This document shows positions 6,181 to 51,248 of a stretch of DNA of 64,000 nucleotides, piece by piece. The stretch is from an uncultured Desulfatiglans sp. GTDB lineage: Bacteria; Desulfobacterota; DSM-4660; Desulfatiglandales; HGW-15. The position numbers were made by a program, and so were the translations under genes. The notes beneath the pieces were generated by a model. That model saw only the letters and a program-made list of their open reading frames with translations, was not told where the DNA came from and searched no databases. The stretch's first letter is position 1. The number at the start of each line of letters is the position of its first letter. The stretch is taken from the NCBI GenBank assembly GCA_964460435.1, contig CAYWRH010000002.1, forward strand, positions 15,500 through 79,499, written 5' to 3'.

Positions 6181-6897
6181 TCAATACTTCCATTCCGCAT
6201 GACTTGCAGGCAGTTTATTGAGCTCTTTTTTCAATTGCGCCCAGTTTGGCAGGTATTTGTCAAGAAAATATAAAAATCTATCGTTATGGTGTCTTTCCAT
6301 AAAATGAACCATCTCATGCACAATGATATATTCAAGGCATTTTTCGGGTTTTTTAGCCAGTTCCAGATTAACCCATATCCTCTTTTTTTCAATATTACAT
6401 GATCCCCATCTGGTCTTCATATGACGGACCTGCCAGTCATTTACCTTTACATCCAGCCGTTTTTCCCATTTTTCAATTATTAAGGGCACCTGTTTTTTAA
6501 GTTCAGCCCGATACCATTCAGTTAATATTTCATGCCTCTTGGCTATAGATGCTCCGGGTCTTATAAAAAGGTTGATATGCCTCTTGTTTTTAATAATGAC
6601 CTTTGGTTGGGCATCAGTCTCAATGATATTTAACAGATACCTGTGCCCCTGGAAGTAATGGCTCTCCCTGTTCAGGTACTCCCTTTCCGGGAGTCTCTCC
6701 TGCCTCTCGAATTTCTGCCTGTTTCTCTTTATCCAGCCGATTTTTGAAATAATAAAGAGTCGGATAGTATCATCATTCACTTTATGCGGCGCTGCAATAC
6801 GCACCCTTCCTGCCGGAGGGTAAACTCCCAGGTGAATGTTCTTGATATCTTTACGAACAACATCAATCTTAAAATTGCTTACAGTAATCTGTCCCAT
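6181..6897 (-). CDS. M48/DUF45 (YgjP-like) zinc metallopeptidase
   Basis: 238 aa with an HExxH motif (IIVHEMVHFMERHH). Its start overlaps the hsdR stop as TAATG, indicating translational coupling. Confidence 0.8.
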   Translation of the reverse strand: MGQITVSNFKIDVVRKDIKNIHLGVYPPAGRVRIAAPHKVNDDTIRLFIISKIGWIKRNRQKFERQERLPEREYLNRESHYFQGHRYLLNIIETDAQPKVIIKNKRHINLFIRPGASIAKRHEILTEWYRAELKKQVPLIIEKWEKRLDVKVNDWQVRHMKTRWGSCNIEKKRIWVNLELAKKPEKCLEYIIVHEMVHFMERHHNDRFLYFLDKYLPNWAQLKKELNKLPASHAEWKY

Positions 6898-9800: not shown

Positions 9801-10088
9801 TTTGTTAGCATCATACAAAGACCTGCTCTGGTCATTGGCTACATTTCTGAGTTCGTGGAGGGCCTTGCCTATAAGGTTTTCGCTGTAATACTTACGGTTA
9901 AGATATTCTCTCAGAATATCTTCTTCAATGTTGCTGTTCTCATCACGCTCTTTCCAGTTTCCGAGATAATTATATCCCAGTTCTTCATTAAGTAGCAGGA
10001 TTACCCTGTTTTGCGTTTCTCTCTCTTGTTTGCCGAGGTTTGATAATGGTGAATGGTGAGTTGTGAATGGTGAATTAGTTTTTATCAT
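6897..10088 (-). CDS. hsdR: Type I restriction endonuclease subunit R
   Basis: 1063 aa. Helicase motif I (HTQGSGKSLTMV) and DEAH-type motif II (VFVDECHRTQ) are present. The N-terminal GKQERETQNRV...SNIEE block is typical of this family. The first ~15 codons lie inside a GTGAATGG repeat arm. Confidence 0.95.
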   Translation of the reverse strand: MIKTNSPFTTHHSPLSNLGKQERETQNRVILLLNEELGYNYLGNWKERDENSNIEEDILREYLNRKYYSENLIGKALHELRNVANDQSRSLYDANKDLYSMLRYGVDVLPDIGQNKKTVWLIDWEHPLENDFSIAEEVTIRGFHKKRPDIVIYVNGIALGVLELKRSTVSISEGIRQNLDNQKHIFIKPFFNTIQFIMAGNDVEGLKYGAVGTKEKYFLKWKEVNEEFNRDYPYLLNLTKSIRDRASKYDYPLDKNIVELLNKERFIELIHDFIVYDRGEKKLARPNQYFGIKAAQDFVKRKEGGIIWHTQGSGKSLTMVWLTRWLREHNPDARVLIITDRDELDEQIEKVFKGVNEKIYRTISGKDLLNRLNDNSPLLMCSLIHKFGGKEEVDDRDVDAYLEELRNNIPSNFKAKGDLYVFVDECHRTQTGKLHKAMKQFLPDALFIGFTGTPLLKSDKQTSLETFGRYIHTYKFDEAVNDKVVLDLRYEARDIEQKITSAERIDEWFDLKTRGLSDFARTELKQKWGTLKKVFSSKSRLEKIVLDIMLDMARKERLQNGRGNAILVSDSIYNACRYYDLFQSAGLKECAIVTSFVPSHRDIKLEESGEGYTERLQRFEIYQKMLADYFNESPETAINKVEQFELEVKKRFVEEPAQMKLLIVVNKLLTGFDAPPATYLYLDKKLRDHGLFQAVCRVNRLDGDDKEYGYIIDYMDLFRSLEAAFKDYTSEVFGGYEKTDIDGLLKDRLQKGKERLDEALEAIKALCEAVDPPKDTISNIRYFCGKDIENPDELKDTEPRRVSLYKNTISLIRAYANIADEMKEAGYSDREAEQIKNDVKHFENLRKEIQLASGDYVDLKQYEPAMRHLIDSYIGAEESRMLANFDDLSLVELLIERGKDAIKEFPANIRNNKDAMAEVIENNLRRLIIEESPTNPVYYEKMSVLLKELIRLRKEATIEYEKYLEEVIALSGKIKKPDTATDYPLSMDTKAKRALYDNLEKNEKIAEELDKRIMATKKDGWRDHFQKSKAVRHAISEALNRYGIKDDAEVSRIFDIVKNQKDY
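10041..10085. repeat. GTGAATGG-type octamer array (downstream arm of the degenerate 4HB cassette)
   Basis: The sequence ttgataatggtgaatggtgagttgtgaatggtgaattag matches 11624-11659. It overlaps hsdR codons 2-16. Confidence 0.8.
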
Positions 10089-10090
10089 TT

Positions 10091-10237
10091 TTATTCCTTT
10101 ATACAGATTGCCGTACCGCTTCTTAGCAATTGCTTACTTAAGATGTACTCCTTCTTTTCATCCTGCAAATATTTAAAGAGCTTAACCACTCGCAAGGCAA
10201 AGGCAAAACTTTTATCTTTAACAACATTTTCTCTCAT
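10091..10237 (-). pseudogene. internally deleted four-helix-bundle (23S rRNA IVS-type) gene remnant
   Basis: It keeps ~44 N-terminal codons (MRENVVKDKSFAFALRVVKLFKYLQDEKKEYILSKQLLRSGTAI) that align with the intact copy at 11881-12022. It then jumps to the last ~20 nt of that gene (tagtttttatcatttttat). About 190 bp are missing. The frame ends at TAA 10091-10093, 2 nt before the hsdR ATG. Confidence 0.65.
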
Positions 10238-10270
10238 GCCATTCACCCTTTACCATTCACAATTCAGAAT
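10238..10270. repeat. CCATTCAC-type octamer array (upstream arm of the degenerate cassette)
   Basis: ccattcaccctttaccattcacaattc is identical to 12024-12050. Confidence 0.8.
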
Positions 10271-10273
10271 TAA

Positions 10274-11623
10274 TTAAAGAATCTCCCAATGACCTCCCTT
10301 TTTAGGGCCTTTATAAGCTATCTTTCCTTCCTTCTGTAATCTGGACGCAGCTTTTTCAACGGCTCTGATTGACTTCCCTATCTGTTCTGATATTTCTACA
10401 AGGGTGATATTCGGATTTTTTTCTATTTTATCCATTATTGCATCAGTGGTTTTTACCGTCGTTTTTACCGTCGTTTTTACCGTCGTTTCTACCGTCGTTT
10501 TAGTATCGACCTCTGAATCGGAAAAGTGGAATATCATCCATAAACCATTCGGTTCATATTCTATTTCAAATCTGGCAGTCCCTGATTCCAAGCATGCTTC
10601 GGATATTTTTTCAATTCCGCGGCCCCAGGCCTCTATCATTCCGGCGCGGAAGAACACGTCTGCTATATCAGGGTTAAAAGGCTGTGAAGAATGCTTTTTT
10701 ATAAGGGTATCAACTGTCCATCCTTCAGGCAAGGTTCCCGGATTCCATAGCATGACCTTGTTGTCATAAACGCTTATCTGGATAGGAATAGAACTCCCAT
10801 AATCCTTATGGGCTACCGCATTAAGAAGAGACTCCCGCAGGGCTTTTTCCGGAACCGGATAGGATTCTATTCGCTGGACACCCTTGTATGAAATCCTTGC
10901 ATGAAGATATTTTGTAAGTAGAATATCCATGGTTTTATCAACCTGAGTGAACAGGTTCCCATGAATCTCATCATGAAAGAGAAGGTCAGCATCACTCTTA
11001 AAAAATCCCACCTTAATAAACGACCCGGTTACATATTTTTCAGGATCAGGGTGAAATAGCAGGATAGACGCCCTTTTGAAGTATGTTTTCTCCTTGAGGT
11101 GAAGTTTATCCATCAGGGAACTATCAGAGTCATTCAATATCTCTGCTGGCAAACGCTTGCTTAACAGCGCCTTTTCTCTGAAGATACTTATTGTCTTTTT
11201 ATCAAAATCAGCAAGTTTAAGATTCGGCACAGGAACACCATCCCAGTGTCTGCCCTGTTTGCTGAGTAAAAACCGGTCAAGGGCAGCGCCTTTCAGCTCC
11301 TGTTTTGTGCTGCCGCTCCGGTAATGGTATTCGCCGCAATAGCTTACCGGGTAGGGGTAGGGAGCAACCACAATTTCAAGGTATTCCTTTTTCTTTTCCG
11401 ATTTCAGGTTTACATCAACCATAATTCCAAGGATGTCACGAACCTTATTCGGGATATCTTCAAGGAGTTTTTTGACATTGGATAATCCTACAACGTTACC
11501 ATTGTCATCTTTACCAATATAAAGAACCCCGCCTTCAGCATTTGCATAACCGCAAATCCATTTAAGGTAATCATCACGCCATGATGTCTTGAATTCTATA
11601 TTCTGGTTTTCTTTCATAAGCAT
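10274..11623 (-). CDS. AlbA_2 (Schlafen-like) domain protein with RecG-C-like/HATPase_c_4 region and C-terminal wHTH
   Basis: 449 aa. The N-terminus ENQNIEFKTSWRDDYLKWICGYANAEGGVLYIGKDDNGNVVGL fits the AlbA_2 pattern. The C-terminus (IEKNPNITLVEISEQIGKSIRAVEKAASRLQKEGKI) looks like a winged helix. Family call is from memory. Confidence 0.75.
   Translation of the reverse strand: MLMKENQNIEFKTSWRDDYLKWICGYANAEGGVLYIGKDDNGNVVGLSNVKKLLEDIPNKVRDILGIMVDVNLKSEKKKEYLEIVVAPYPYPVSYCGEYHYRSGSTKQELKGAALDRFLLSKQGRHWDGVPVPNLKLADFDKKTISIFREKALLSKRLPAEILNDSDSSLMDKLHLKEKTYFKRASILLFHPDPEKYVTGSFIKVGFFKSDADLLFHDEIHGNLFTQVDKTMDILLTKYLHARISYKGVQRIESYPVPEKALRESLLNAVAHKDYGSSIPIQISVYDNKVMLWNPGTLPEGWTVDTLIKKHSSQPFNPDIADVFFRAGMIEAWGRGIEKISEACLESGTARFEIEYEPNGLWMIFHFSDSEVDTKTTVETTVKTTVKTTVKTTDAIMDKIEKNPNITLVEISEQIGKSIRAVEKAASRLQKEGKIAYKGPKKGGHWEIL
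10449..10508. repeat. in-frame 12-nt tandem repeat (gtttttaccgtc x4 plus one degenerate unit)
   Basis: Units lie at 10449-60, 10461-72, 10473-84 and 10485-96 (one substitution), with a degenerate unit at 10497-508. They encode TTVETTVKTTVKTTVKTT in the linker before the wHTH. Confidence 0.9.
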
Positions 11624-12073
11624 TCCAATTGTGAATTGTGAGTGGTAAATGGTGAATTAGTTTTTATCATTTTTATCACCTTTTGCGGTAAGGATGATAG
11701 ATGCAAGTAATTTTTTTAGTTCAGTTATATCAGGGATTATTGAATTGTACTGCACTGTTTCTAGATATTCCGATTTATATAAAAGATCAAGCCAGTATTC
11801 GGTTTCGTTTGCTTCCTTTTGAGCGATCGCCATTTTGTGAATGAAATCGGCTTTGCTTTCCGCCTGTTCTGCCTCACGTATCAAAGCTCCGATTGCTGTG
11901 CCGCTTCGAAGTAGTTGCTTACCTATAACATATTCTTTCTTTTCATTCTGTAAGTACTGGAAAAGTTTAACGATCCGCAAAGCAAAGGCAAAACTTTTAT
12001 CTTTAACAACATTTTCCCTCATGCCATTCACCCTTTACCATTCACAATTCATCATTCACCCTTCACCATTACT
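11624..12073 (-). mobile_element. four-helix-bundle gene cassette bounded by inverted octamer arrays (IVS-like element)
   Basis: A GTGAATKG array (11624-11656) and a CCATTCAC array (12023-12073) are reverse complements and flank the ORF directly. A second, deleted copy and an ORF-less arm pair occur in the same island. Confidence 0.45.
11657..12022 (-). CDS. four helix bundle protein (23S rRNA intervening-sequence protein family)
   Basis: 121 aa from the ATG at 12022; the track extends to a GTG at 12031. MRENVVKDKSFAFALRIVKLFQYL...SGTAIGALIREAEQAESKADFIHKMAIAQKEANETEYWL is the typical family pattern. Confidence 0.85.
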   Translation of the reverse strand: MRENVVKDKSFAFALRIVKLFQYLQNEKKEYVIGKQLLRSGTAIGALIREAEQAESKADFIHKMAIAQKEANETEYWLDLLYKSEYLETVQYNSIIPDITELKKLLASIILTAKGDKNDKN

Positions 12074-13273
12074 TCAAATCAGTCTAACCTTCCCTGTCAG
12101 CAAAACCTGCATCATGCCCTGTTTTATCATTCGGTATTTATCCAGTTTTTTCTCAAGGGCTTCTATTTCGGCATCCATGTCAGAGAGAATTTGCGCGATT
12201 CGGGTTTGTTCCTCTTTTTCTTTTGGTAAATGGATTTTTATTTTATACATTTGAGATTTATTCAATTTTGCTCTGGTTCCACTTGCTAATAAATCTAAAA
12301 TATTTTTATGAACTAAAGAATAGTAAATGAAATTCTGATCAAATTGTGCTTTTGCTTTTAAAATGTGCGCATGATTATTTACCCAAAATTTACCTTTCAT
12401 TTTGTATGCTATCGGCCTTGTTGCATATTCATCAAAGTAACCACCATCTTCTGCAATTAGAATGACGTCATCATTTATTTTATAATCATTAAGATAATCT
12501 AAAATACCATTCGCACCACAATAGGGGTAATCACCTTGCATGGCTAGCCTTTGTGTTTCATTTAATGGCAACCTCAGATTGTCTAAACAATCAGTCATTT
12601 TTTCTAAGTTGATCCCTTCCCAGCTTCGCTTCGGTTTAAGCAACTCCTGCATAGCCCCCTGCTTGACGGCTCGCTTTTTTGCAATGAGTTTTTCCAATTG
12701 GGTAATGAGAGAATCGACATCATTTAAAGCAGTGGCTATGGCGGTCTGCTCGGCTTTTGTGGGGGGAAGAGGTATTTGAAACTTTCTTATTCTTGCAAGT
12801 GCTAATTTGGGTTGTGCACCTAATGTTTTTTCAGCTTCAATTTTATTTTGGATCAACCAAGACATTAAAACATAAAGTAAATAATCTCTAACGCAAGAAA
12901 TATTTGTAAGTCTATCTGCGTTCTCAGTAAGATTCGCACCATTTAATATAGGAGGGATTTTGCCCACTAATCCTAATGTTCCTGCGACAGAGATAAAAAT
13001 ATCATCATTAAAAATACAATAATTTTTAATTGAAGGATATACATCATTAGGTAAATATTTGATGTCATTTAAAGAAACACTTCCCATAGACATATCTGCA
13101 ACACGAATATAAAAATGATCTGTTTCTTTGTCTGTAAGTGATTTGCCTAATGGTAATCTTTTCCCACTTCTTACTTCTGAAACATCGTTGATAGCTAATA
13201 CTCTCCAATCATTTGGAATAATCCCAACTTCTGTTTCTTTGAACCCTTCCGGTATTTTTTTAAGATTTACCAT
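12074..13273 (-). CDS. hsdS: Type I restriction-modification specificity subunit S
   Basis: 399 aa. Two variable target-recognition regions are separated and followed by conserved helical spacers (IPLPPTKAEQTAIATAL..., LPKEKEEQTRIAQILSDMDAEIEALEKKL). Confidence 0.9.
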   Translation of the reverse strand: MVNLKKIPEGFKETEVGIIPNDWRVLAINDVSEVRSGKRLPLGKSLTDKETDHFYIRVADMSMGSVSLNDIKYLPNDVYPSIKNYCIFNDDIFISVAGTLGLVGKIPPILNGANLTENADRLTNISCVRDYLLYVLMSWLIQNKIEAEKTLGAQPKLALARIRKFQIPLPPTKAEQTAIATALNDVDSLITQLEKLIAKKRAVKQGAMQELLKPKRSWEGINLEKMTDCLDNLRLPLNETQRLAMQGDYPYCGANGILDYLNDYKINDDVILIAEDGGYFDEYATRPIAYKMKGKFWVNNHAHILKAKAQFDQNFIYYSLVHKNILDLLASGTRAKLNKSQMYKIKIHLPKEKEEQTRIAQILSDMDAEIEALEKKLDKYRMIKQGMMQVLLTGKVRLI

Positions 13274-13306
13274 TCAAGCTGCATCCATTTTAAAACAATA
13301 AACTGG

Positions 13307-13329
13307 ATTCCCCGATCAAGTCGGGGAAT
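13307..13329. repeat. REP-like hairpin attccccga-tcaag-tcggggaat
   Basis: A perfect 9-bp stem lies in the hsdM-hsdS spacer. It belongs to the short GC-rich palindrome class seen elsewhere in the window. Confidence 0.6.
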
Positions 13330-13360
13330 GACGTGGTGGTTGATATTGTCTTTTTATTAA

Positions 13361-15805
13361 TCAAAATGAAAACCCCATTTTAGCAAGATGCATTCTAACT
13401 TTGTCTTCAAGCTTACTGACCTCCTCCATTTGAGCAGGCAAAGGCGTTTCATACCGTTCCGCAAGCTCCTTAATACGCTGCGTGAGCCTGTGGCTGATAT
13501 TATCCATCTCTGTTTCAATTCTCTTTCCGATATTTTGCATCCACTTCTTTTCCACAACAATATGTTTTATCTCATCAATGGTCAGTTTCGGGTACTGAGC
13601 TATCACCTTCTTTTCAAGTTCAGCCTTTGCAATCCTTATTTTCTCCCTTGCCTTTTTTTCATCCTCCATGAGCCCTTTATACTTATGGAGCAGGTCATAC
13701 TCTTCAGCATTATCAGCACTCCTTTTACCCAGCTCCCTTATTGCCTTATCTAGGGAGACTTTGCTGATCTTCCCTTTGTCATCCACAGCGTTGCCAAGCA
13801 GACCTTCTTCGCCACTATGCTCTTCTCTAAACTCTTCCATGCTGGCAGTTAAGGATTCAACCTGTATTTCGAGATCATCTATGACCTTCTGCTCTTTTTC
13901 AAAATACTCCTGAATCATCAGGACAGGCGGTATAAGCCTTCCTTCCAGCCCTTCAATCCCCTGAACCTCTTTTACTATCTCCCTGTCGCCCTTTTTTGTC
14001 TTCTTTTCTACCCTGTTCACAATATTGCCTGCTGACCAGCCATCGGCTGCAAGCTCATAAAAATCATCCTGCATGGTCTCTGCCCAGTAATCCATAAGAT
14101 GCTGGTATATGGTGTATTTATCAATGAGCGGTTTATCTGTGTAATGCCCAAGCAGGCTTTCTGAAATTCTCTTTATCTCATGCTTTGGCTTTATTCCCTT
14201 TTTTAGCGCCATAAGATATATAGCGGTCTCTTGTTTCCAGCGTCTAAACACAGAGCTCATCTTTTTGGCAAATGCAATAAACTCAGGGTGTGAAAAGATC
14301 TCATCCCTTATTTTTGAATAGGGAATGGATAATTCAAGATAACCTTTCCTGCCATTTTTAAATAAATGTTTTTTTAAAGTGGGGTACACCTGCCAGTATT
14401 TTTCAAGGGCATCAATATCCCTTTGGGGTATGCCTCCCAATAAATGGGCCTCTATGTCCTGGAGATCTTCCTCCTCCTGACTATCGATATACCTTGGTAT
14501 ATTCAGGTTATAATCGTTTCTGGGGTCTGCGATTTCCTCGACAGGAATGATACGTGAATATTTGGGGATCTCAATGCGGCGGTTGAACGTATCCACAATC
14601 CTGTGTATATCCTGTTCCCTGAGCCGGTTTTTATTGCCATCCTTTATAAACCCCTTGCTGGCATCAATCATGAAGATATCTTTTCGCTCTGCGGCCTTTT
14701 CCTTGTCTATCACGACCAGACTTGCTGCAATGCCTGTCCCGTAAAACAGGTTGGGAGGAAGGCCTATGATACCCTTTATATAACCCTTCTGAATTATCTT
14801 CTTCCTGATCTGGGCCTCCGCATTGCCACGGAACAGCACGCCAAGGGGAAGAACAATACATGCCTTGCCCTTAGACTTTAGGGATTTTATCAGGTGAAGC
14901 AGGAATGCAAAGTCACCATTCTTTGCAGGCGGAACAGCATCATAACCTTCAAACCGCTTATAGATATCATTAACAGGATCAACTCCATTCATCCATGACT
15001 TATAGCTGAAGGGCGGATTTGAGACCGCATAATCAAACTGCTTTAGTTCTCCGGTAGTATCATTTTTAAACTCAGGGGCAGCAAGCGTATTTCCCTGTAC
15101 AATCTCTGCATCAGGGTTGTCATGGAGCCACATGTTCATAACTGCAAGCGCCCGGGTTGCATTGTCATTTTCCTGGCCATATATGGTTATTCCATAAGGG
15201 GCTTCATCAGCCGCCTTTAAAAGTAATGACCCTGAACCGCATGTGGGGTCATATATGGTTTCGGACTGGCTTTTGGAATTTTCGATCCCGATCACCTTTG
15301 CCATGACTCGGGAGACCTCGGCAGGGGTATAGAACTGCCCCTTGCTCTTGCCGCTTTCTGTGGCAAAGTGCCGCATGAGGTATTCATAGGCATCGCCAAG
15401 CAGGTCATCTCCCTCTGCCCTGTTGCCGCTGAAATCCAGCTCTTTCTTTTCAAAAATGGTTATGAGATTGGTAAGTTTGTCAACCTTGTCTTTGCCCTTG
15501 CCAAGTTTTTCATCATCATTAAAATCAGCAACTGTGATAACGCCGGTAAGCCCGTTTGCCTTTGCAAACTCGCCTATGATTTTATTGATCTGGTCGCCGA
15601 TATCGGATTTGCCTTTGTGTTTTACCATGTCGTAAAAACTTGCATTTGGAGGGATATCAATAAGAGGGTCTTTTTTGTCAGAGACATATTTCATGAAGAG
15701 CATAACCAGCACATAATCCTTGTACTGGCTGGCATCCATGCTGCCGCGGAGTTCATCACAACTTGCCCAGAGTGAACTGTATAATTCTGATTTTTTTATA
15801 GCCAT
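13361..15805 (-). CDS. hsdM: Type I restriction-modification DNA methyltransferase subunit M (long form)
   Basis: 814 aa. SAM-binding DPTCGSGSLL and catalytic NPPF (VSNPPFSYKSW) are present. A ~300-aa coiled-coil-rich C-terminal extension follows. Confidence 0.95.
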   Translation of the reverse strand: MAIKKSELYSSLWASCDELRGSMDASQYKDYVLVMLFMKYVSDKKDPLIDIPPNASFYDMVKHKGKSDIGDQINKIIGEFAKANGLTGVITVADFNDDEKLGKGKDKVDKLTNLITIFEKKELDFSGNRAEGDDLLGDAYEYLMRHFATESGKSKGQFYTPAEVSRVMAKVIGIENSKSQSETIYDPTCGSGSLLLKAADEAPYGITIYGQENDNATRALAVMNMWLHDNPDAEIVQGNTLAAPEFKNDTTGELKQFDYAVSNPPFSYKSWMNGVDPVNDIYKRFEGYDAVPPAKNGDFAFLLHLIKSLKSKGKACIVLPLGVLFRGNAEAQIRKKIIQKGYIKGIIGLPPNLFYGTGIAASLVVIDKEKAAERKDIFMIDASKGFIKDGNKNRLREQDIHRIVDTFNRRIEIPKYSRIIPVEEIADPRNDYNLNIPRYIDSQEEEDLQDIEAHLLGGIPQRDIDALEKYWQVYPTLKKHLFKNGRKGYLELSIPYSKIRDEIFSHPEFIAFAKKMSSVFRRWKQETAIYLMALKKGIKPKHEIKRISESLLGHYTDKPLIDKYTIYQHLMDYWAETMQDDFYELAADGWSAGNIVNRVEKKTKKGDREIVKEVQGIEGLEGRLIPPVLMIQEYFEKEQKVIDDLEIQVESLTASMEEFREEHSGEEGLLGNAVDDKGKISKVSLDKAIRELGKRSADNAEEYDLLHKYKGLMEDEKKAREKIRIAKAELEKKVIAQYPKLTIDEIKHIVVEKKWMQNIGKRIETEMDNISHRLTQRIKELAERYETPLPAQMEEVSKLEDKVRMHLAKMGFSF

Positions 15806-33373: not shown

Positions 33374-34015
33374 TTACTCAATATATGACCGTACAAGCAT
33401 ATTGAAGAGCACCTGGCTTGGCTTTTCACATTTCTCCTTTTCAGGGAACTCTTTATCAAAGGCCTCCAGGTTGTCATGACTTATATTATACACATCGCTG
33501 TAAATAAACCTCCATGTCTTACTGCCCATGATTTTACCCTCATCAAGCAGATGTATAAGCTGGCCAAGGGGGTATTTTCCTTCTGAGTTAGAAATATTGA
33601 AATCCCTGCTGTTTTTAAAACCATGCCTGCAATAATTATGGGGGTCGCCCAAAATGATTATGGCCGGATATCCCATCGCCTTTGCCCCGGAGATACCTTT
33701 TCTTATCAGTTCACCACCAATTCCAAGGTGTTGATATGGAGGCAGCACACAGACAGGGCCAAAGGTTACTGTATCAAGCCTGCTGCCATTTGCATCTTCC
33801 AGATGTGAGGCAGTAAAGACGATACAGCCCGCTATCTTGTCTTCTGCAACTGCCACATAATATAGATTGGGTATAAAGTCTCTGTGTGTCCAGATATTGT
33901 GAATAGTCAGGTGTTCATCACAGCCCGGCACATAGAGGTTCCAGAATGCCTCCCGTGTAATATTTTCTACCTCTTTATAATCAGCAGGGGTTCCTTTTCG
34001 TATTATAAATTTCAT
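33374..34015 (-). CDS. GNAT family N-acetyltransferase (YhbS/COG3153-like)
   Basis: Likely starts at MKFIIRKGTPADY (ATG 34015; the track ORF runs to 34060). The acetyl-CoA motif region is QHLGIGGELIRKG. Confidence 0.75.
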   Translation of the reverse strand: MKFIIRKGTPADYKEVENITREAFWNLYVPGCDEHLTIHNIWTHRDFIPNLYYVAVAEDKIAGCIVFTASHLEDANGSRLDTVTFGPVCVLPPYQHLGIGGELIRKGISGAKAMGYPAIIILGDPHNYCRHGFKNSRDFNISNSEGKYPLGQLIHLLDEGKIMGSKTWRFIYSDVYNISHDNLEAFDKEFPEKEKCEKPSQVLFNMLVRSYIE

Positions 34016-34046
34016 ATCTTTCCTTTGTATGAAGTGTTGATTAATC

Positions 34047-34544
34047 TTATTTGAGGTCATCGATCTTTCTTACCGGAGAATAAAAACCATAATCTGTCAT
34101 CTTTTGAAGGATTGCATTTGCCTGACTGACTGTTATAGTCCCATCCAGAAGAGTTGCCTTGATAATACCTATTGTCCCGGTTACGACCACACCCATTTGA
34201 GAGCACACCCTTCTTGCCAACCTGTCATCTGTTACAACAATCAATCTCTGTTCACTTGCAACGGCGATACTGGATGCCTCTCCTTTACCAAGCTGGCCGC
34301 TTAACTCAATGTAAACCCTGCGCTCATTCCGGCTCATTTTACATATGCTGAAAATTCCATTTTCAATTAAGCTGTCTATTGTTTTGAGTAACGGGTATTT
34401 TGTAAATCCTGCAGAAAGCTCATCCAGAACCTGGGTGGTTATGATTGCCCTCTGCCTGTACCTGTTTTCTATTATATTGATCGATTCTGTCAGAAGGAAG
34501 TTGCTGAGGGTTACAGTATCAAAAATCCATCTCCTGTCAGGCAT
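34047..34544 (-). CDS. PIN-like nuclease domain protein (DUF3368 family), putative toxin
   Basis: 165 aa. Conserved acidic positions are present (FDTVTLSNF..., VVTDDRLARR). It overlaps the upstream UPF0175-type gene by 8 nt. Confidence 0.8.
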   Translation of the reverse strand: MPDRRWIFDTVTLSNFLLTESINIIENRYRQRAIITTQVLDELSAGFTKYPLLKTIDSLIENGIFSICKMSRNERRVYIELSGQLGKGEASSIAVASEQRLIVVTDDRLARRVCSQMGVVVTGTIGIIKATLLDGTITVSQANAILQKMTDYGFYSPVRKIDDLK

Positions 34545-34848
34545 TATTTATGTCGCTTTCAAAAAATGAATTGTTCTGGACAATATTGTGCTCTTTAAGC
34601 CACTCACGGATATCCCATATATTCATCCCAAACTCTTCTGCGAGTTTGCCCAGGCTGATATATTCACCCTGAAATGCCTCAAGCGCACGCCGCTGCTTCT
34701 CATTAAGGTTAATAATATCAAGTTGATAGCATGATATTACAGCCCTTCTTACCAATTCACCAACAGATGTATCTCTTTTTTTTGACAGCTCTTTTAATCC
34801 CTGAGCAATTTCAGGATCTATCTTTATATGGAGCGTAGCATTTTGCAT
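34537..34848 (-). CDS. UPF0175-family antitoxin with RHH-like N-terminus
   Basis: Likely starts at ATG 34848 (MQNATLHIKIDPE...), preceded by AGAGAGG. The C-terminus ISLGKLAEEFGMNIWDIREWLKEHNI matches the UPF0175 pattern. Confidence 0.7.
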   Translation of the reverse strand: MQNATLHIKIDPEIAQGLKELSKKRDTSVGELVRRAVISCYQLDIINLNEKQRRALEAFQGEYISLGKLAEEFGMNIWDIREWLKEHNIVQNNSFFESDINNA

Positions 34849-35014
34849 TTTGATACCTCTCTTTGCATATATGTACAAGATCAGGTATATAGTATGCCCT
34901 TTATTCTGGTTTTTCAACAGGAAATTGACATGAATTTATCTTGAAATAGATGTCATTCCCGCGCACAGGCTGTGACAAAATGTCATTTTTAGGTGATAGG
35001 CTGGTTTTTCGTAG

Positions 35015-43270: not shown

Positions 43271-45865
43271 CTATCTCAATACCACACTGTTACTGATGCC
43301 AAGATTTGTCAGCTCCGTGCTCAGTTCATCTGCCCCGGCCTTTGTAAGAAATGCGCCTACAAGGAGATTATCGTAATTTTCATCCGAAATAATATATGGT
43401 GAGAAATCATTTTGTTTCAGGATATTTATCATGCCCAGAAGGGCCTCTTTGTCAGTAAAACTCCCTGTATATACAGCATAGGCGGTCTTTTTTATCTCGC
43501 CATCCTTTATGGCCTTTTCATTGATAAAGGCCTCTGCGCCCTCTTTATCAGCAAACTCGCCTGAATAGACCCTGTACCATATCCCCTTTTCACCAAGATT
43601 TACCTTTACCCAGAAGGCGTCGATACCTGCCTTTGAATACTTATCAAGTGCACTCCTTGCCTGAGCAGTACTGTCAAATGACCCAAGGTAAACAGAATAT
43701 GGGTATCTGCCCTCCTGATAAACAAGCCCTGCCTCTGTCTCAGCGGGCGAAGGGGGTTCAGGGGCAATCACCTTTTCATTAGGTTTTTCCTCCTGCACAT
43801 TTGAGGCAGGAAGCTCTGGCTCCCGGCGCTTTACTTCGGCTCTATCCGGCTTTTGAGGTTTAAACACCGCATCTCTTTCACTGCTATTCACAACCTCCTT
43901 AATCTCGGGCCTTCCGGGAAAGATGGCATCATACTTCCAATACAATACGGCAATAATAATGATAATGGCAACAAGGGATATAAGCCCCCTTAAAAAGCCT
44001 TTCTTTTTATCAGGTGCATGAACTTCACTGCCGCCTGTTTGAGCCGCCTCATATTTTTCTCTGAGCGCATGCGGGATAAGGCCGGGCCTGACACGGTTAA
44101 GGACTATGCCCATGATATTGCTGCTTACCCGCGAAAGCTGCGCAAGGGTACGTTTAATGGCTCGCACAGAGACCTGTTCAGGGTTATATACTACAAATGT
44201 GCCATCTGCCTTTGCAGCCAGGATGGCAGCATCTGAGCTGGAAAGCAGGGGGGAAGAATCAAGGATTATAACATCATAGAAATTTTTTACCGTATCAAGA
44301 AACTCTGCAAACCCTTTTATACCAAGAAGTTCACCCTGTTTATCTGGCAGCGCCCCGCTTGTAATGATATTGAGTCTATCCAGGCCCGGCGTGGAGATAA
44401 GCTGGTCAAAGGTCATACCGCCCATAATCATATCTGTGACTGTCTTTACTGTCTCTTTCCATTTATAAGCTCCAAGCAGTATATCTGTCAGGCCGGGTGA
44501 TTCTTCAAGGTAAACCCTCCTGGAAAGATCAGGGTTTATAAGGTCTACCCCCACAAGAAGCGTCCTGAGGCCTGCCTGTGCAAGGCTTATTGCAAGGTTT
44601 ACAGATACCATTGTTCTGCCTTCGCCAGGGTAGCTGCCTGTTACCGCTATGGTCTTTATCTTCCCCCCTTCGCAGGCAGCCTGTATATTTGCCCTTAAGC
44701 CCCTGAAGCTCTCGGAAATAATTGTCCTGGGTTCAAGATGTGTAATAAGTGAAATGGATTTTTCAGATGATGCTCCTGCCCCTATCCGCCTGCTGCTCAC
44801 GGACGGAAAATCCTTTGGGTCTATGGCAGGGATTATCCCTATAACCCCAGTTTTCAGCTCCTTTTCCAGCTTATCAAGGAAGGCGTAAGAGTGGCCTATA
44901 TATTCAATTATTATGGTCAGGATCAGCCCGAGGACAATACCAGCTATAAGCCCTGTCAGCAGGATTTTCAGATAATCAGGTTTATTGAATGGCCGGAGGG
45001 GGCGCAGAGCCGGGCTTACAACCCTTGCATCATCCGGGTTTTCCGCCTTTCTTATCATGGCCTCCTGCCTCTTTTCCTCTAAAAAGGAGGCTATATTCCT
45101 TAACGATTCGACCTCCATCTTAAGCCGGTCAAATTCTATCTTTTTATCCATATGGAGGTCTATGTTCTCATTTACCTTTTCCAGTTCCTTTCCTATGGCG
45201 GCATCATTTTTACCACTCTTCCCCTCTATCTCATTTTTCTTCGAAAGCAGCGCCTCACCCTCAAGATCAATAGAGATTAGCCTGTTTTCCCTCATAAACC
45301 CTTCAAGCTCTTCCTCTTTAGCCTTAAGTTTATCGCCTGTGGTCTGCTGCTCTTCAATTATATGGGCAATAACCTCATCAAGCCTTTTATCATGGGCTTC
45401 CCTGTAGGATGCAATGAATGTAGAGGAGACTGTTTCTGCGATTCTAAAGGCCTTCTCGGGGTCTTTGTCCAGCACCTTTATGCGGAGGATATCTGTTTTG
45501 CCTTCCCTTTCAGTGTAAATTTTTGATCTTAAATCCTCAATAACCATCTGGTCTGCTGGTTTATCAGAATCGATCAAGGAGAGTTGTAAGGCAACCCTTT
45601 TAATAAAATCATGGCTCTGTATGATTACCTGCTGTGTCTCTATATTATCAGAAGGTGCAGAAAGAAGTCTGTTAATAAAACCGTCAGTGGCGCGGGCCTC
45701 ATCAATCTTTATGCTGCATGATGAAACATATACAGGCGTCAGGCCATTCCATGCTGCATATATAGCGCTAAAGAGCATGCAGGCTGCTATCACAGAGACA
45801 ATTCTGGCCCATCTTTTTTCAGCAACCATGAGGAATGCTGACGATTTGAATCGGTTGAAGATCAA
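43271..45865 (-). CDS. Wzz/PCP-type chain-length-determinant fused to a BY-kinase-like P-loop domain (Walker A K-to-R), third TM helix and two C-terminal SPOR domains
   Basis: 864 aa. TM1 spans ~aa 21-40, followed by a coiled-coil periplasmic region, then TM2 at ~aa 300-322. The CpsD/MinD-like domain has TGSYPGEGRT (R417, codon AGA at 44615-44617) and Walker B DVIILDSSP. TM3 spans ~aa 627-645. SPOR-like repeats are YSVYLGSFDSTAQARSALDKY...WYRVYSGEF and YAVYTGSFTDKEALLGM...LLVGAFLTKAGADEL. Confidence 0.8.
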   Translation of the reverse strand: MIFNRFKSSAFLMVAEKRWARIVSVIAACMLFSAIYAAWNGLTPVYVSSCSIKIDEARATDGFINRLLSAPSDNIETQQVIIQSHDFIKRVALQLSLIDSDKPADQMVIEDLRSKIYTEREGKTDILRIKVLDKDPEKAFRIAETVSSTFIASYREAHDKRLDEVIAHIIEEQQTTGDKLKAKEEELEGFMRENRLISIDLEGEALLSKKNEIEGKSGKNDAAIGKELEKVNENIDLHMDKKIEFDRLKMEVESLRNIASFLEEKRQEAMIRKAENPDDARVVSPALRPLRPFNKPDYLKILLTGLIAGIVLGLILTIIIEYIGHSYAFLDKLEKELKTGVIGIIPAIDPKDFPSVSSRRIGAGASSEKSISLITHLEPRTIISESFRGLRANIQAACEGGKIKTIAVTGSYPGEGRTMVSVNLAISLAQAGLRTLLVGVDLINPDLSRRVYLEESPGLTDILLGAYKWKETVKTVTDMIMGGMTFDQLISTPGLDRLNIITSGALPDKQGELLGIKGFAEFLDTVKNFYDVIILDSSPLLSSSDAAILAAKADGTFVVYNPEQVSVRAIKRTLAQLSRVSSNIMGIVLNRVRPGLIPHALREKYEAAQTGGSEVHAPDKKKGFLRGLISLVAIIIIIAVLYWKYDAIFPGRPEIKEVVNSSERDAVFKPQKPDRAEVKRREPELPASNVQEEKPNEKVIAPEPPSPAETEAGLVYQEGRYPYSVYLGSFDSTAQARSALDKYSKAGIDAFWVKVNLGEKGIWYRVYSGEFADKEGAEAFINEKAIKDGEIKKTAYAVYTGSFTDKEALLGMINILKQNDFSPYIISDENYDNLLVGAFLTKAGADELSTELTNLGISNSVVLR

Positions 45866-46932
45866 TTGGCCTCCTTGGTTGCCTTTGTTTCAGGCTGAAT
45901 GCATTTTTCAATATGAAGCGGTGGATTTGCCAAAAGGTCTATATAAAATCCCTCTTCCTTTTTTCGGCCTTCAGCGTCATAGAGTATCTCAAGCACAGGG
46001 CTCAGGGGGTGCCTCCAGTTGACAGAGATGACCCGCCCGATAAAACCATTATTGAGTCTCACGTGGGAGTTGACCGGGAAAATGGAGACCTCTTTCAGAA
46101 ATGCCTTTAAAGGCTTAACAGGAAAAAGCCCTCTCCCTGTTTCAGCTATCTGCCTCACTGCCTCATGGGGCAAATAAATATCTCTGTATGGCCTTTTAGC
46201 GATCATTGCACAATAGGTGTCTGCAATCGCAATTATGGATGCAAGTTCAGGGATACTGTCTCCCTTTATGCCACGTGGATAACCTGAGCCATTTGCCCTC
46301 TCATGGATGCATCTGGCAGCTTCAGCAAGCCAGGTGTATCTATCACCCATGGCAAGCAGGATATTGTAGCCTGTTTCAGGATGCCTTCTGATTATGGCAA
46401 TATCCTCATCAGACAATTTTTCAGTGCTGAAGATGATATCTTCAGGGATCATGTACATGCCCACGTTTTCAAGCATGGCAGCAAGGCCAAGCCTCATCAT
46501 CATCTTCATGTCATAGTTCATGGCCTTGCCTATCTTAAGTGCGGCAAAGGTGACATTGACTGTGTGGGAGGCAAGGTCATATGAATCCTTGACCCTGGAG
46601 ATGGCATAATCATAGATCCCCTCAACAATCCCCTTTTCCAGCACCATATGGAGATCTGAAAGCAGAGGGGCAGGGCTTATGGTCATATTGCCCTTTATGA
46701 TAGCAGCAATTTCGTTTGCCCTTTCCATAATGGCGATAAAATATCTCTCTGCCTCAGCGCCCTCAATTTTTTTCCGGGGGGGCTCTTTTATGACCTGGGA
46801 TACAATATTTACAGGTGTAAAAAGTGATGAATCGCTGAGCCGGAAGCCCTCCTCCTGTTTTGGAGGGGCAGGCTGCCTTTTGTCATTATCCTTTTTATCC
46901 CTGAGCCTGATTATATCAGAAAAGCGCACCAT
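45862..46932 (-). CDS. HD-GYP domain protein with degenerate metal-binding motif (HD replaced by EN)
   Basis: 356 aa. The alignable core is HTVNV...AAMLENVGM...RRHPETGY...IHERANGSGYPRG...IADTYCAM. E155-N156 (GAAAAC, 46465-46470) occupy the HD position, while GYP is retained. Confidence 0.8.
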   Translation of the reverse strand: MVRFSDIIRLRDKKDNDKRQPAPPKQEEGFRLSDSSLFTPVNIVSQVIKEPPRKKIEGAEAERYFIAIMERANEIAAIIKGNMTISPAPLLSDLHMVLEKGIVEGIYDYAISRVKDSYDLASHTVNVTFAALKIGKAMNYDMKMMMRLGLAAMLENVGMYMIPEDIIFSTEKLSDEDIAIIRRHPETGYNILLAMGDRYTWLAEAARCIHERANGSGYPRGIKGDSIPELASIIAIADTYCAMIAKRPYRDIYLPHEAVRQIAETGRGLFPVKPLKAFLKEVSIFPVNSHVRLNNGFIGRVISVNWRHPLSPVLEILYDAEGRKKEEGFYIDLLANPPLHIEKCIQPETKATKEAN

Positions 46933-47716
46933 CGCTGATTATCTTCTCCACCAGTTTTTTGCTGACATTTTCCTGTTTTGTGCCTGACCCCACCAGAAGG
47001 GATAAATCGCACAGGTTATTGATCTTTCTGGGTACCCCGCCTGTATATTCATATATCCTTTCCACTGCATCATCAGAAAACAGGTTGCACCTTCCTCCCG
47101 CCTTTTCCTGCCTGAATATAATATACCGGGCAGTCTCTTCAAGGTTAAAGGGTGTAAGATGGTATTTTATGGCGATCCTCTGGTCAAGCTGCTCTATCTC
47201 TTTAACCTTCTTTATCAGCTCCGGCTGGCCAATAAGGATAATTGTCATGAGAAACCTGTTGTTAAGCTGGAAATTTAACAGCAGCCGTATCTCTTCAAAG
47301 GATGCCTCATTAAGTATCTGGGCCTCGTCAACAATAAGTAGGGTCTCCTTTCCGGCCTCAAGGTTTGCGAGCATCCTTTCATTGAGCGCCCTCAGGCATT
47401 TTACCTTTGTGTCAGGGATCTCCTTTATGCCGAACTGGTACAGTATCTCCTGCAAAAATTCAAGGGATTCAAGCCTGGGGTTAACGATTATCCCTATGTC
47501 ATATTTTTCTACGGGGAGTTCCCTGACAAAAACCATTGAAAGGGTGGTCTTGCCGCAGCCGATCTCGCCAGAGAGCATGGCGCTCCCCTTTCTCATCCGG
47601 GCGGCATAGATAAGACGGGTCAGCCCCTCTTCATGGCCATTAGAGAGGTAGTAAAAGTCCGGGTCAGGGACACTTTCAAATGGGAACCGGTCAAATTTCC
47701 AGTAATTCAGGTACAT
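46916..47716 (-). CDS. ExeA/MshM-like AAA ATPase (secretion-ATPase family resembling TIGR03015)
   Basis: 266 aa. The N-terminus fits the family (FPFESVPDPDFYYLSNGHEEGL). Walker A GEIGCGKTT, Walker B LLIVDEAQ and LIGQPEL are present. A 17-nt overlap links it to the next gene. Confidence 0.85.
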   Translation of the reverse strand: MYLNYWKFDRFPFESVPDPDFYYLSNGHEEGLTRLIYAARMRKGSAMLSGEIGCGKTTLSMVFVRELPVEKYDIGIIVNPRLESLEFLQEILYQFGIKEIPDTKVKCLRALNERMLANLEAGKETLLIVDEAQILNEASFEEIRLLLNFQLNNRFLMTIILIGQPELIKKVKEIEQLDQRIAIKYHLTPFNLEETARYIIFRQEKAGGRCNLFSDDAVERIYEYTGGVPRKINNLCDLSLLVGSGTKQENVSKKLVEKIISDGALF

Positions 47717-47903: not shown

Positions 47904-48704
47904 TTGATGAAACCTGTCCCATTTTATGACCCCAAAAACAAAAAAGTTCCGATGAAGGTGGCAGCCTTTATGTCAGGATCAGGCAGCAATATCAGGATGC
48001 TCTTAAAAAGAGAAAGGGAGCTGATTCTGGCCAGAGGAAACTCCCCTTTCCATGTTGTATTCATATACAGTGACAGGTCGGATGGCGCATGCCAGGGTGA
48101 AAGGATCGCTCTTGAATACGGACTCCCATACTTTAGCTTTGATATCCGCAGGTTTCACACCATAGCGGGTTTAAACCGCACCACACTTACCTCTGACGGA
48201 CTTGAGGCGAGAAAAAAATATGACAGTGTCGCTGCAAATCTTGTGGCTGCATTTGATATTGATCTTATTGCCCTGGGCGGCTATATGAGCGTTACCACAC
48301 TTAGGGGCTGCGTCAATGTTCACCCGGCAGACCTCTCTATTCTAACCCCTGATGGCAAAAGGAGATACACAGGAGATCATGCTGTGGCAGATGCCATACT
48401 TGCAGGAGAAAGATATATCAGGGCATCCACCCTCTGGACAGACCAGGGTGTGGATACAGGCCCCCTGCTCATGGTTTCAGGGCCTGTTGAGGTAAAGCTC
48501 CCTGAATCTCTGGAGTTCCTTAAGAAAAACCCGGAGCTGTTAAAGCAGACTGTTTCAAGACACCAGGAGCTGCTGAAAGAACAGGGGGACTGGATAATAT
48601 TCCCCCGTACAATAGAGATGATAGCAGAGGGCAGGTTTGCCATGGATGAGAAAAACAGGGTATATGTGGATGGAAGGCCTGTGCCCGAGGGGTATCGGGA
48701 TTAA
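47904..48704 (+). CDS. formyltransferase-domain protein (PurN paralogue with C-terminal extension)
   Basis: 266 aa with MSGSGSNIRMLL, NVHPADLS (N/H catalytic pair) and VDTGPLL (Asp). It is ~60 aa longer than a typical PurN. Confidence 0.75.
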   Translation: MMKPVPFYDPKNKKVPMKVAAFMSGSGSNIRMLLKRERELILARGNSPFHVVFIYSDRSDGACQGERIALEYGLPYFSFDIRRFHTIAGLNRTTLTSDGLEARKKYDSVAANLVAAFDIDLIALGGYMSVTTLRGCVNVHPADLSILTPDGKRRYTGDHAVADAILAGERYIRASTLWTDQGVDTGPLLMVSGPVEVKLPESLEFLKKNPELLKQTVSRHQELLKEQGDWIIFPRTIEMIAEGRFAMDEKNRVYVDGRPVPEGYRD

Positions 48705-49793: not shown

Positions 49794-51197
49794 CTAGAAG
49801 CTGTAAGTAACCTTGGCGGCGTACATCTCCCAGTCTTTTTCAAAGGTATGTTTATTATCCATGCCTGTGTTTTCAGACAGAGGAAGCCCTGCAACGCCCT
49901 CAATATGGTGGCCTTCCAATTTTACTGACCAGTACTGGTTAATGTCAAAACGGGCAGTCAGACACATATCATTGTTATATGCCCTGTACACCGGGTCAAG
50001 CGGTTGAAACAAATCTACAGCGGCTTTGGCGCCATCACGATCGTTCCTGTTTCCGTAGTTCTCAGAGTAGTAACCGCCCAGCTCGAACCAGTCGGTAAAA
50101 CGGTAGGTTGCCCCAACATACCAGCCGGCAGGCTTCCTGTATATGGGTGTTGATGGGTTATATACACCCGCCCATTCTGTCTGGCCCAGATAGGCAAAGG
50201 TCTGGTCAAAGGAATTGGCCATATCCGGGTATACACCCTGTGTATTGATTGTCAGTTCACGATCAGACCACATATACTCTGCAACCACCATAAGGTTATT
50301 CCATGTATATTCCGCAGAAACAACATAGTTTTCTGTTTTAACATCAGTAAAGGCATTAAAGGCATACTCACTGTAAAGTGGCATGCCGGTTTCAGGATCA
50401 ATTACAGGTATGCCGGTAACAGGGTCCATTTCCATAAACATATAGCTGAAAATCCCTGTCCCTGCAGGATATGCGCCATATGATACAAGGTCCATTGTAG
50501 CAACCTGTGCTGAGCCTCCAACCCTGAGGCCGTTTAGGGGTGTATCCCATGTAAGGCTCACTGCATATTTCTTGTCAACCTTGATATCCTGGTTCTGCAT
50601 ATAAGGATCAAATGTATTAATACCCATAAGTGACTGGGCAAGAGACTCATTGGCATCTATATTCTGGGTACCGATCATGGCCTGGTAAGAGAGCCCTCCA
50701 AACCGGCCAAGACGTGCATTGCCGTATACACCTACACCCATCAAAGAAAGGGCTGCATCGCGTTCGATCTCAGGGTATACGCTCTGTGGCAGGAAGATCC
50801 AGTTTCTAAGCATATCCACATCGCGGGTCTCATTGTAAAGACCGTGCGGTGTCTTGATCTTGCCAACACGCACACCGAGCCAGTCTTTCCAGCGGTAGTC
50901 ACCATAGGCCCAGTCCACTGTAATTTCGTTATTCCCGTAGTTGCCCAGGTCTCTTGAAAAGAGCTGTACACCGACACGCATATTTTCGGTAAGTTCTTTG
51001 CCGAAGTTAATTCCGATCTCGTTGAATTCAAATGAGCCCTCTGAGGTCTCCCCCATAAAGTTATTGTCTGTTGTGGTTAAATAGCCCTGTGATATAAAAC
51101 CATTAATTTCAATGCCCCCAACCTCCGCAGCGCCTGCACAGGTAAAACCTGATAATATTGATATAAATAATAAAGAAAAAATATATTTTAATTTCAT
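49794..51197 (-). CDS. outer-membrane beta-barrel porin-like protein
   Basis: ATG 51197 is preceded by GGAGGA. Signal peptide is MKLKYIFSLLFISILSGFTCAGA. Alternating aromatic/Gly-rich beta-strand pattern runs throughout, ending in the C-terminal ...KVTYSF. Confidence 0.65.
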   Translation of the reverse strand: MKLKYIFSLLFISILSGFTCAGAAEVGGIEINGFISQGYLTTTDNNFMGETSEGSFEFNEIGINFGKELTENMRVGVQLFSRDLGNYGNNEITVDWAYGDYRWKDWLGVRVGKIKTPHGLYNETRDVDMLRNWIFLPQSVYPEIERDAALSLMGVGVYGNARLGRFGGLSYQAMIGTQNIDANESLAQSLMGINTFDPYMQNQDIKVDKKYAVSLTWDTPLNGLRVGGSAQVATMDLVSYGAYPAGTGIFSYMFMEMDPVTGIPVIDPETGMPLYSEYAFNAFTDVKTENYVVSAEYTWNNLMVVAEYMWSDRELTINTQGVYPDMANSFDQTFAYLGQTEWAGVYNPSTPIYRKPAGWYVGATYRFTDWFELGGYYSENYGNRNDRDGAKAAVDLFQPLDPVYRAYNNDMCLTARFDINQYWSVKLEGHHIEGVAGLPLSENTGMDNKHTFEKDWEMYAAKVTYSF

Positions 51198-51248
51198 GAT
51201 ATCCTCCAATCTATTTTAGTCCGCATTAATATTTATGAGCCCGGTTCA

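Follow-up and report, generated by a model that had tools for sequence, protein, structure and literature searches.

In Escherichia coli Wzc (PDB 7NHR, 9R68), two transmembrane (TM) helices flank a periplasmic base and arm and are followed by a cytoplasmic P-loop domain with an EX2RX2R oligomerisation motif (O-motif) and a Walker B motif. The cycle of such bacterial tyrosine (BY) kinases runs between a dephosphorylated octamer, held together by EX2RX2R, and phosphorylated monomers (PMC9800525). BY pseudokinases have the BY-kinase (BYK) fold without the catalytic residues and/or the Tyr tail; EcpK of Myxococcus and HfsB of Caulobacter, which stand alone, have no Walker motifs at all and are encoded inside exopolysaccharide (EPS) clusters, are proposed to act as scaffolds, as are fused polysaccharide co-polymerase (PCP-2)/pseudokinases (Cuthbertson et al., PMC12004946). 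PCP-2a proteins of the Wzc type, BY pseudokinases and SPOR domains are all known already. Here we describe a gene of an uncultured Desulfatiglans sp. whose product draws on the three of them. The stretch analysed, called the window below, comprises 64,000 nucleotides (contig CAYWRH010000002.1 of assembly GCA_964460435.1, positions 15,500 to 79,499), and the gene occupies positions 43271..45865 of its minus strand, from a TTG start to the stop codon inclusive; the 864-aa product is a Wzc-like (PCP-2a) protein with a kinase domain predicted to be dead, a third TM helix (TM3) and two SPOR domains.

Compared with E. coli Wzc, the window protein lacks the Walker A Lys, the Walker A' Arg, the Tyr cluster, the tip of the periplasmic arm and adjacent wza, wzb and wzy genes, and it adds TM3, a linker and the SPOR pair. 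Unlike EcpK and HfsB, it carries a pseudokinase part that is only partly degenerate, with Walker B, the O-motif and the P-loop glycines still in place, and that is fused to a truncated PCP part of its own and to SPOR domains, in a locus without export genes. We regard its assignment as a derived BY pseudokinase as well supported, and we consider it probable that the protein is a peptidoglycan-anchored scaffold working with two co-transcribed partners, an AAA_22 ATPase (AAA22) and a degenerate HD-GYP protein (EN-GYP).

Architecture and motifs of the window protein

A sequence-only reading of the window had proposed a Wzc-like order of parts, and hydropathy, an AlphaFold2 (AF2) model and a Foldseek match of the full-length model to full-length Wzc (E = 3e-27) all bear it out. 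From the N terminus, and with all coordinates on the minus strand, the chain runs through TM1 (residues 19-42, 45740..45811), a Wzc-like periplasmic PCP domain (43-297, 44975..45739), TM2 (298-324, 44894..44974), a cytoplasmic P-loop domain of BY-kinase fold (376-595, 44081..44740), a tail at the site of the Tyr cluster of relatives (596-621, 44003..44080), TM3 (622-644, 43934..44002), a disordered periplasmic linker rich in Pro, Glu and Lys (645-714, 43724..43933) and two SPOR repeats, at residues 715-789 (43499..43723) and, more divergent, 790-864 (43274..43498). Kyte-Doolittle hydrophobic segments lie at residues 19-40, 297-330 and 621-650; the AF2 model (mean pLDDT 73) has its TM helices at exactly the borders given above and is disordered at residues 648-713, between TM3 and the SPOR pair (pLDDT ~30). 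The P-loop domain has AAA_31, CbiA and ParA matches above the Pfam cut-offs and scores 135 bits against TIGR01007, the NCBIfam model of the BY-autokinase domain (cut-off 108); its Foldseek TM-score to CapAB is 0.87-0.89, and the nearest solved structures by sequence are CapA/CapB chimeras (CapA1B1, E = 1.5e-29) and also full-length Wzc. Wzz and GNVR match the protein below threshold (17.9 and 18.8). The periplasmic placement of the SPOR domains would follow from the three helices and the homology to Wzc, and the charges flanking the helices agree weakly with such a three-pass topology under the positive-inside rule.

The motifs of the P-loop domain divide into those that are lost and those that are kept. 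Walker A reads GSYPGEGRT (residues 410-418, 44612..44638) and departs from the canonical G-x5-G-K-[ST] at the catalytic Lys, where Arg417 (codon AGA, 44615-44617) stands, just as first read from the letters. Walker A' is degenerate (LLVGVDLINP, residues 436-445, 44531..44560; consensus hhhhDxDxR): its final Arg is gone only in the window's clade, while its first Asp is Gly across the whole family, members that retain the Lys included, for which reason we rejected that change as a clade-specific loss. We likewise rejected S410G as a lost active-site residue, E. coli Wzc having Gly there too. What remains are three BYK-wide invariants whose loss is specific to the window's clade: K417, R443 (the Arg of Walker A') and N509, where PPNP has become PDKQ. 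Kept in the clade are E385, R388 and R391 of the O-motif (ESFRGLR, residues 385-391, 44693..44713), which is conserved in every member without the Lys, as well as T/S418, N423, D441 and, within a Walker B of standard form (VIILDSSP for hhhhDxxP, residues 532-539, 44249..44272), D536 and P539. From the P-loop domain to TM3, the 26-aa tail has a single Tyr, Y605 (REKYEAAQ), as had been noticed, where relatives have 5-8. A BYK fold short of catalytic residues and/or of the Tyr tail is what defines the BY pseudokinase class (PMC12004946), and the window protein belongs to it.

The P-loop domain might still be an active ATPase or kinase with Arg417 in place of the Lys, acting either on a different substrate or as a switch governed by nucleotide. 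Arg preserves the positive charge, and the G-x5-G-[KR]-[ST] spacing, the following Thr, Asp441 of Walker A' and Asp536 of Walker B are all in place. On the other hand, sister lineages have Ser or Asn at the Lys site, the Arg of Walker A' and the PPNP loop disappeared together with the Lys, and there is no Tyr cluster. Experiments on other BY-kinases point mostly in the same direction: in ExoP, VpsO and E. coli K-12 Wzc, mutating the Walker A Lys abolishes or reduces kinase activity, whereas K547Q of Acinetobacter baumannii Wzc is listed as unaffected (PMC9800525). Taken together, we consider retained activity very unlikely.

Order of the losses in the family and its operon

A homology search returned 120 proteins, and a second, filter-free HMMER search covered 1.84 billion representatives; the Walker A column, SPOR domains and Tyr clusters were counted over 256 homologues with an alignable P-loop domain, using an HMM alignment. 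Most of the top 80 among the 120 homologues combine PF05036 (SPOR) with P-loop and GNVR/Wzz domains and come from metagenome-assembled genomes (MAGs) of Thermodesulfobacteriota/"Deltaproteobacteria"; at NCBI, the SPOR-bearing homologues are named "SPOR domain-containing protein" or "polysaccharide biosynthesis tyrosine autokinase". The closest genome match is an uncultured Desulfatiglans MAG, at 68-77% identity. The fusion that had been thought unusual is no rarity in this lineage, with a SPOR tail in 115 of the 256 homologues, mostly from Thermodesulfobacteriota, and a SPOR-like tail in 48 of the 147 new top matches (representatives at 50% identity) of the second search. The related idea that SPOR domains stand in place of the Tyr cluster holds for the window protein and fails for the family, in which most SPOR-bearing relatives have both GK[ST] and the Tyr cluster. 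In the long forms (~1000-1100 aa), GK[ST], DLRKP and a Tyr cluster such as YKYYKYYSYYGEE are followed by the linker, TM3 and SPOR, and as these ancestral forms hold a YKYYKYYSYY-type cluster alongside TM3 and SPOR, the SPOR domains were added after the Tyr cluster and not substituted for it.

The Walker A Lys is kept in 111 of the 120 homologues, and the seven closest clusters (64-100% identity) read R,R,R,R,S,R,N. A strain-specific sequencing error as the source of Arg417 is ruled out: the identical 864-aa protein is carried by seven metagenome contigs from at least two samples, and the six closest homologue clusters are without the Lys as well (R,R,R,S,R,N), making its loss a trait of the clade. 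Within the set of 256, Lys is present in all 141 homologues without SPOR, and those with SPOR divide into 105 K, 8 R, 1 S and 1 N; the Tyr cluster is missing from 10/10 of the proteins lacking the Lys. The codons used in the K-less clade, AGA/AGG for Arg and AGT for Ser, are single steps away from AAR and then AGR. In a neighbour-joining tree of the P-loop domain, drawn without support values, the short forms are monophyletic and the K-less clade is nested inside them. The tree places another K-to-R lineage (P0079, P0081; also P0134) separately, and its change from Lys to Arg is, judging by the alignment and tree, independent of that in the window's clade. The proteins of this second lineage have no Tyr cluster and have the whole periplasmic domain deleted (query residues ~41-285), so that two TM helices are left adjacent; they come from the same operon and keep the P-loop domain, TM3 and both SPOR repeats. 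Intermediate in character is a group of 860-932 aa (P0008-P0015), which retains the Lys and whose tail has 0-3 Tyr.

The window's PCP gene is the last of three overlapping genes on the minus strand. The first, at 46916..47716, encodes AAA22, with intact Walker A (GCGKTT) and Walker B (LIVDEAQ) motifs; in NCBIfam it comes closest to TIGR03015, the model of the XrtA/PEP-CTERM-associated ATPase, with a sub-threshold 230.5 bits (cut-off 324.5). The second, at 45862..46932, encodes the HD_5 (HD-GYP-type) protein EN-GYP and overlaps the PCP gene by 4 nt, the TTG start of the latter overlapping the TGA stop of the former. Scans for promoters and terminators gave no signal above shuffled expectation. 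Aligned to the active enzyme PmGH (4MCW), the window's HD_5 protein has EN for HD and IHE for HHE and keeps GYP; EN (or QN) and xHE are found in the partner of all SPOR-type loci, and distant loci keep HD. From these substitutions we infer that EN-GYP is probably not a phosphodiesterase and may serve as a non-catalytic sensor of cyclic di-GMP (c-di-GMP). The XrtA/PEP-CTERM EPS loci (TIGR03015 for the ATPase, TIGR03007 for a chain-length determinant, TIGR03018 for a kinase, TIGR03027 for an exporter) offer the best NCBIfam likeness for AAA22, for the outer-membrane polysaccharide exporter (OPX) of the ancestral operon and for part of the PCP/BYK protein, but the models all score below their cut-offs (besides TIGR03015, TIGR03018 at 108.9/230.65 and TIGR03007 at 54.2/278.85), and no exosortase or PEP-CTERM gene is present among the scanned open reading frames (ORFs) of the window.

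The operon of the long form P0016 has two further genes, one for an OPX (Poly_export) between the HD_5 and PCP genes and one of the Wzy_C family after the PCP gene. In a phmmer survey of 88 loci, this module of AAA22, HD5, OPX, PCP/BYK and WzyC was found in at least 20, and Candidatus Anammoxibacter has the full five-gene set with a PCP/BYK protein without SPOR. Where the AAA22-HD5 context is kept, only short-clade loci are without OPX and WzyC, with no space left for remnants, and every short-clade locus keeps AAA22, HD5 and the PCP gene; an arrangement like that of the window is also seen around P0002, P0004, P0005, P0007, P0008, P0014 and P0079. A formyltransferase-like gene (Formyl_trans_N only; 47904..48704, plus strand) is divergent from the operon and adjoins the module in nearly all loci, including those without OPX and Wzy, and bioB-bioD-bioF-bioA lies downstream of the PCP gene in convergent orientation. 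Long SPOR-bearing PCP/BY-kinase paralogues with the Lys and the Tyr cluster intact also occur in four loci (L013, L019, L032, L038) that have no AAA22, HD5, OPX or Wzy neighbours within ~9 kb.

Periplasmic arm, selection and SPOR repeats

The periplasmic domain, recognised from the AF2 model, the alignment and the weak Wzz/GNVR matches, consists of an alpha/beta base and a helical arm that has lost its distal end. Relative to P0016, 93 residues (P0016 228-320) are missing at one site, after window residue 222. In the model of the window protein, this site is a hairpin turn (helices 136-216, turn 217-221, helix 222-275), and in that of P0016 the missing segment forms the far end of the arm (helices 141-244, tip elements 245-287, helix 288-373). 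In structures of the E. coli Wza-Wzc complex, the arm tip ("forearm") is the interface to Wza, and mutating it abolishes capsule production (PMC12881504); the loss of the tip and the loss of the OPX gene are thus coherent.

These losses bear directly on whether the protein is still a working co-polymerase, in a Wzx/Wzy pathway that does without phosphorylation like EpsV/EcpK or HfsA/HfsB and whose OPX, Wzy and sugar-transferase genes lie elsewhere. There is precedent in Myxococcus and Caulobacter, where EPS synthesis is supported by BY pseudokinases, and fused PCP-2/pseudokinases have been noted (PMC12004946); moreover, the periplasmic domain retains its jellyroll-like base and the greater part of its helical arm, at a dN/dS of 0.18-0.23, and neighbouring glycosyltransferases are missing in the ancestral loci too. 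Against this, OPX and Wzy_C are cleanly gone from the syntenic operon in every short-clade locus, the arm has lost the part to which the OPX docks in E. coli, and a sister lineage with the same operon has dispensed with the whole periplasmic domain and still keeps the P-loop domain, TM3 and SPOR. Nor does the window hold EPS genes: no glycosyltransferase, flippase, OPX or Wzy/Wzx gene was found among its scanned ORFs, and outside the locus its content is housekeeping (alaS, recA, type I restriction-modification, lpx genes, bamA, lolCD, lysS, dnaK). We find a working co-polymerase rather unlikely.

The progressive loss of partner genes and catalytic features could also mean that the protein is a functionless, decaying relic and a future pseudogene, and its dN/dS is indeed above that of the housekeeping neighbours. 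We estimated dN/dS with the Nei-Gojobori method within the K-less clade, where dS is ~0.5-0.8. By gene, the ratio is 0.04-0.06 for AAA22, 0.09-0.14 for BioB, 0.21-0.31 for the HD_5 protein and 0.26-0.30 for the whole PCP protein; AAA22, at 93-96% amino-acid identity among genomes whose PCP proteins are 66-73% identical, is under tighter constraint than any other gene of the operon and than BioB. By region, the PCP protein has ratios of 0.21-0.28 in the P-loop domain, 0.18-0.23 in the periplasmic domain and 0.11-0.20 in SPOR, as against 0.64-0.82 in the tail, TM3 and linker, and mean pairwise identities follow the same division (75%, 73% and 79-84% in the three folded parts, 44-56% in linkers and tail). 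The protein, its apparently dead P-loop domain included, is therefore maintained under purifying selection that is looser than on housekeeping genes. The contrast between folded domains and linkers, an ORF of ~860-885 aa that is intact in at least seven clusters at 64-72% identity, and the conserved operon with its overlapping start and stop codons leave decay without function extremely improbable.

That the chain ends in a further TM helix and a pair of true SPOR domains, as first suspected, is supported by hydropathy, by the AF2 model and by Pfam (PF05036, 65.1 bits over two stretches, cut-off 21); both repeats (723-793 and 796-863) have the order beta-alpha-beta-beta-alpha-beta in the model, at a pLDDT of ~90. 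By sequence, the region has chance-level matches only in the PDB, the faintest of them to the SPOR domain of CwlC. With FtsN, DamX, DedD and RlpA, the window protein shares the above-threshold match, the order of secondary structure and a predicted periplasmic position behind a TM helix and a flexible linker; unlike in these, the SPOR domains form a tandem pair on a Wzc-like protein and have no division context. The roles of four glycan-contacting residues in the beta-sheet of the FtsN SPOR domain, Q251, S254, W283 and R285, have been described (PMC6895207); in the homologous SPOR domain of RlpA the Gln matching Q251 contacts the lactyl group of MurNAc. Aligned to an FtsN reference sequence, the first repeat has Y726, S729, W763 and R765 at the presumed equivalents of these sites and the second Y799, S802, Y831 and N833.

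The sequence-only reading saw in these domains a recruitment to denuded septal peptidoglycan and a link to division. Two well-scoring SPOR domains, the first of which keeps the equivalents of S254, W283 and R285, speak for it, as does the statement, in a preprint, that all characterised SPOR domains bind denuded glycans (bioRxiv 10.1101/2022.07.01.498525). It sits less well with the Tyr at the Q251 site, which is found in both repeats and family-wide, with the absence of division genes near the PCP gene in the 64-kb window, and with the fact that SH3-type domains substitute for SPOR in some members, suggesting a more generic anchoring to the wall. Specific binding to denuded septal glycan is plausible from the residues, not assured, and septal recruitment, while compatible with the scaffold that we favour, strikes us as possible but somewhat doubtful. 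The members in question, P0072 and P0076, have bacterial SH3 domains (PF06347, PF08239) after TM3 and no SPOR; the wall-binding module behind TM3 looks to be exchangeable between family members.

The proposed scaffold and its implications

We propose that the history of the window protein began with an active-looking autokinase that had GK[ST], a Tyr cluster, a full-length arm, TM3 and tandem SPOR domains, and that was encoded in an operon of an AAA22 ATPase, EN-GYP, an OPX exporter, the PCP/BYK/SPOR protein and a Wzy_C-like protein. The Desulfatiglans-like short lineage no longer has the Tyr cluster, the distal arm tip and the genes for OPX and Wzy_C, and the window's sub-clade has further lost the Walker A Lys (to R, later also S/N), the Arg of Walker A' and the PPNP loop; the P-loop fold with EX2RX2R, TM3, the two SPOR domains and the translational coupling to AAA22 and the degenerate HD-GYP have been kept under selection. 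The resulting protein would phosphorylate nothing and dock no outer-membrane exporter. Octamer stabilisation is expected for catalytically dead or Tyr-to-Phe variants of BY-kinases (PMC9800525), and the O-motif may assemble the window protein into a ring that phosphorylation could not open, as the O-motif is intact and both the acceptor tyrosines and the catalytic Lys are missing. The flexible linker of ~70 aa and two SPOR domains per subunit would tether such a ring to the peptidoglycan, and the whole would act as a scaffold between membrane and cell wall for AAA22 and EN-GYP. A parallel may be drawn with ExeA/GspA of type II secretion, where a cytoplasmic AAA_22-type ATPase is likewise paired with a peptidoglycan-binding domain on the periplasmic side of the inner membrane. 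In ExeA, the ATPase and a PG_binding_1 domain are on one polypeptide, which serves the assembly of an outer-membrane multimer; here, the ATPase and the peptidoglycan-binding parts would be split between AAA22 and the PCP/SPOR protein.

Several points weigh against this proposal. The dN/dS of the whole protein (~0.27) exceeds that of BioB two- to threefold, meaning that the constraint is real yet relaxed, and the tree on which the nesting of the losses is read has no support values. The Tyr tail of Wzc adds to the ring interface, such that assembly of a ring without the tail is not guaranteed, and an Arg in the P-loop may still bind nucleotide. The Tyr in place of the canonical Gln of FtsN concerns both SPOR repeats and the entire family. 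Contact with AAA22 and EN-GYP is suggested by the structure of the operon alone. Finally, the inspected DNA spans 64 kb and OPX, Wzy and glycosyltransferase genes could sit elsewhere in the genome, and the ancestral loci, too, have no adjacent glycosyltransferases. With these points in mind, we see the chances of a scaffold with a function outside export as about evenly balanced, distinctly below our confidence in the pseudokinase assignment itself.

A stronger version would have the trio of AAA22, EN-GYP and the dead-kinase SPOR protein repurposed as a peptidoglycan-anchored, c-di-GMP-sensing ring in the inner membrane, unrelated to polysaccharide export. The lineage that has discarded the entire periplasmic PCP domain and kept everything else points toward it, and yet we hold it to be unlikely. 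If true, it would mean a new envelope machine made from the parts of an exporter, possibly for envelope tethering or with a role associated with division or the cell pole.

Other features of the window are mentioned for completeness. At 49794-51209 on the minus strand lies a putative outer-membrane beta-barrel of 471 aa, without any match in Pfam or NCBIfam, that has a signal-peptide-like N terminus and the ending ...VTYSF; the close relatives L003 and L088 conserve it and L005 does not. In the type I restriction-modification system (hsdR, hsdS, hsdM; 6897-15805, minus strand), hsdR and hsdS are separated by a small ORF and a Schlafen/AlbA_2 + HATPase_c_4 gene (10274-11623). A region downstream of the bio operon is variable and differs among close relatives, with a small, toxin-antitoxin-like UPF0175/DUF3368 pair and an acetyltransferase at 33374-34917 (minus strand) and at 21018-21819 of L001.

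Our literature searches, one combining SPOR, tyrosine kinase and polysaccharide and one for TIGR03015, returned nothing relevant, and we found no literature description of the TM3+SPOR subfamily, of its AAA22/EN-GYP operon core or of a graded decay series of this kind. The family offers a natural stepwise series from bacterial tyrosine autokinase to pseudokinase, with nested losses: the partner genes, the phospho-acceptor tail and the docking tip in the whole short clade, and the catalytic Lys in sub-clades. Such a series could show which functions of Wzc survive without phosphorylation. More broadly, a sizeable subfamily of Wzc-type proteins is predicted to have a third membrane pass and wall-binding domains, which bears on how envelope-spanning exporters are placed with respect to the peptidoglycan, and a conserved, uncharacterised operon core, a TIGR03015-like ATPase and a degenerate HD-GYP protein, accompanies these exporters and outlives them.

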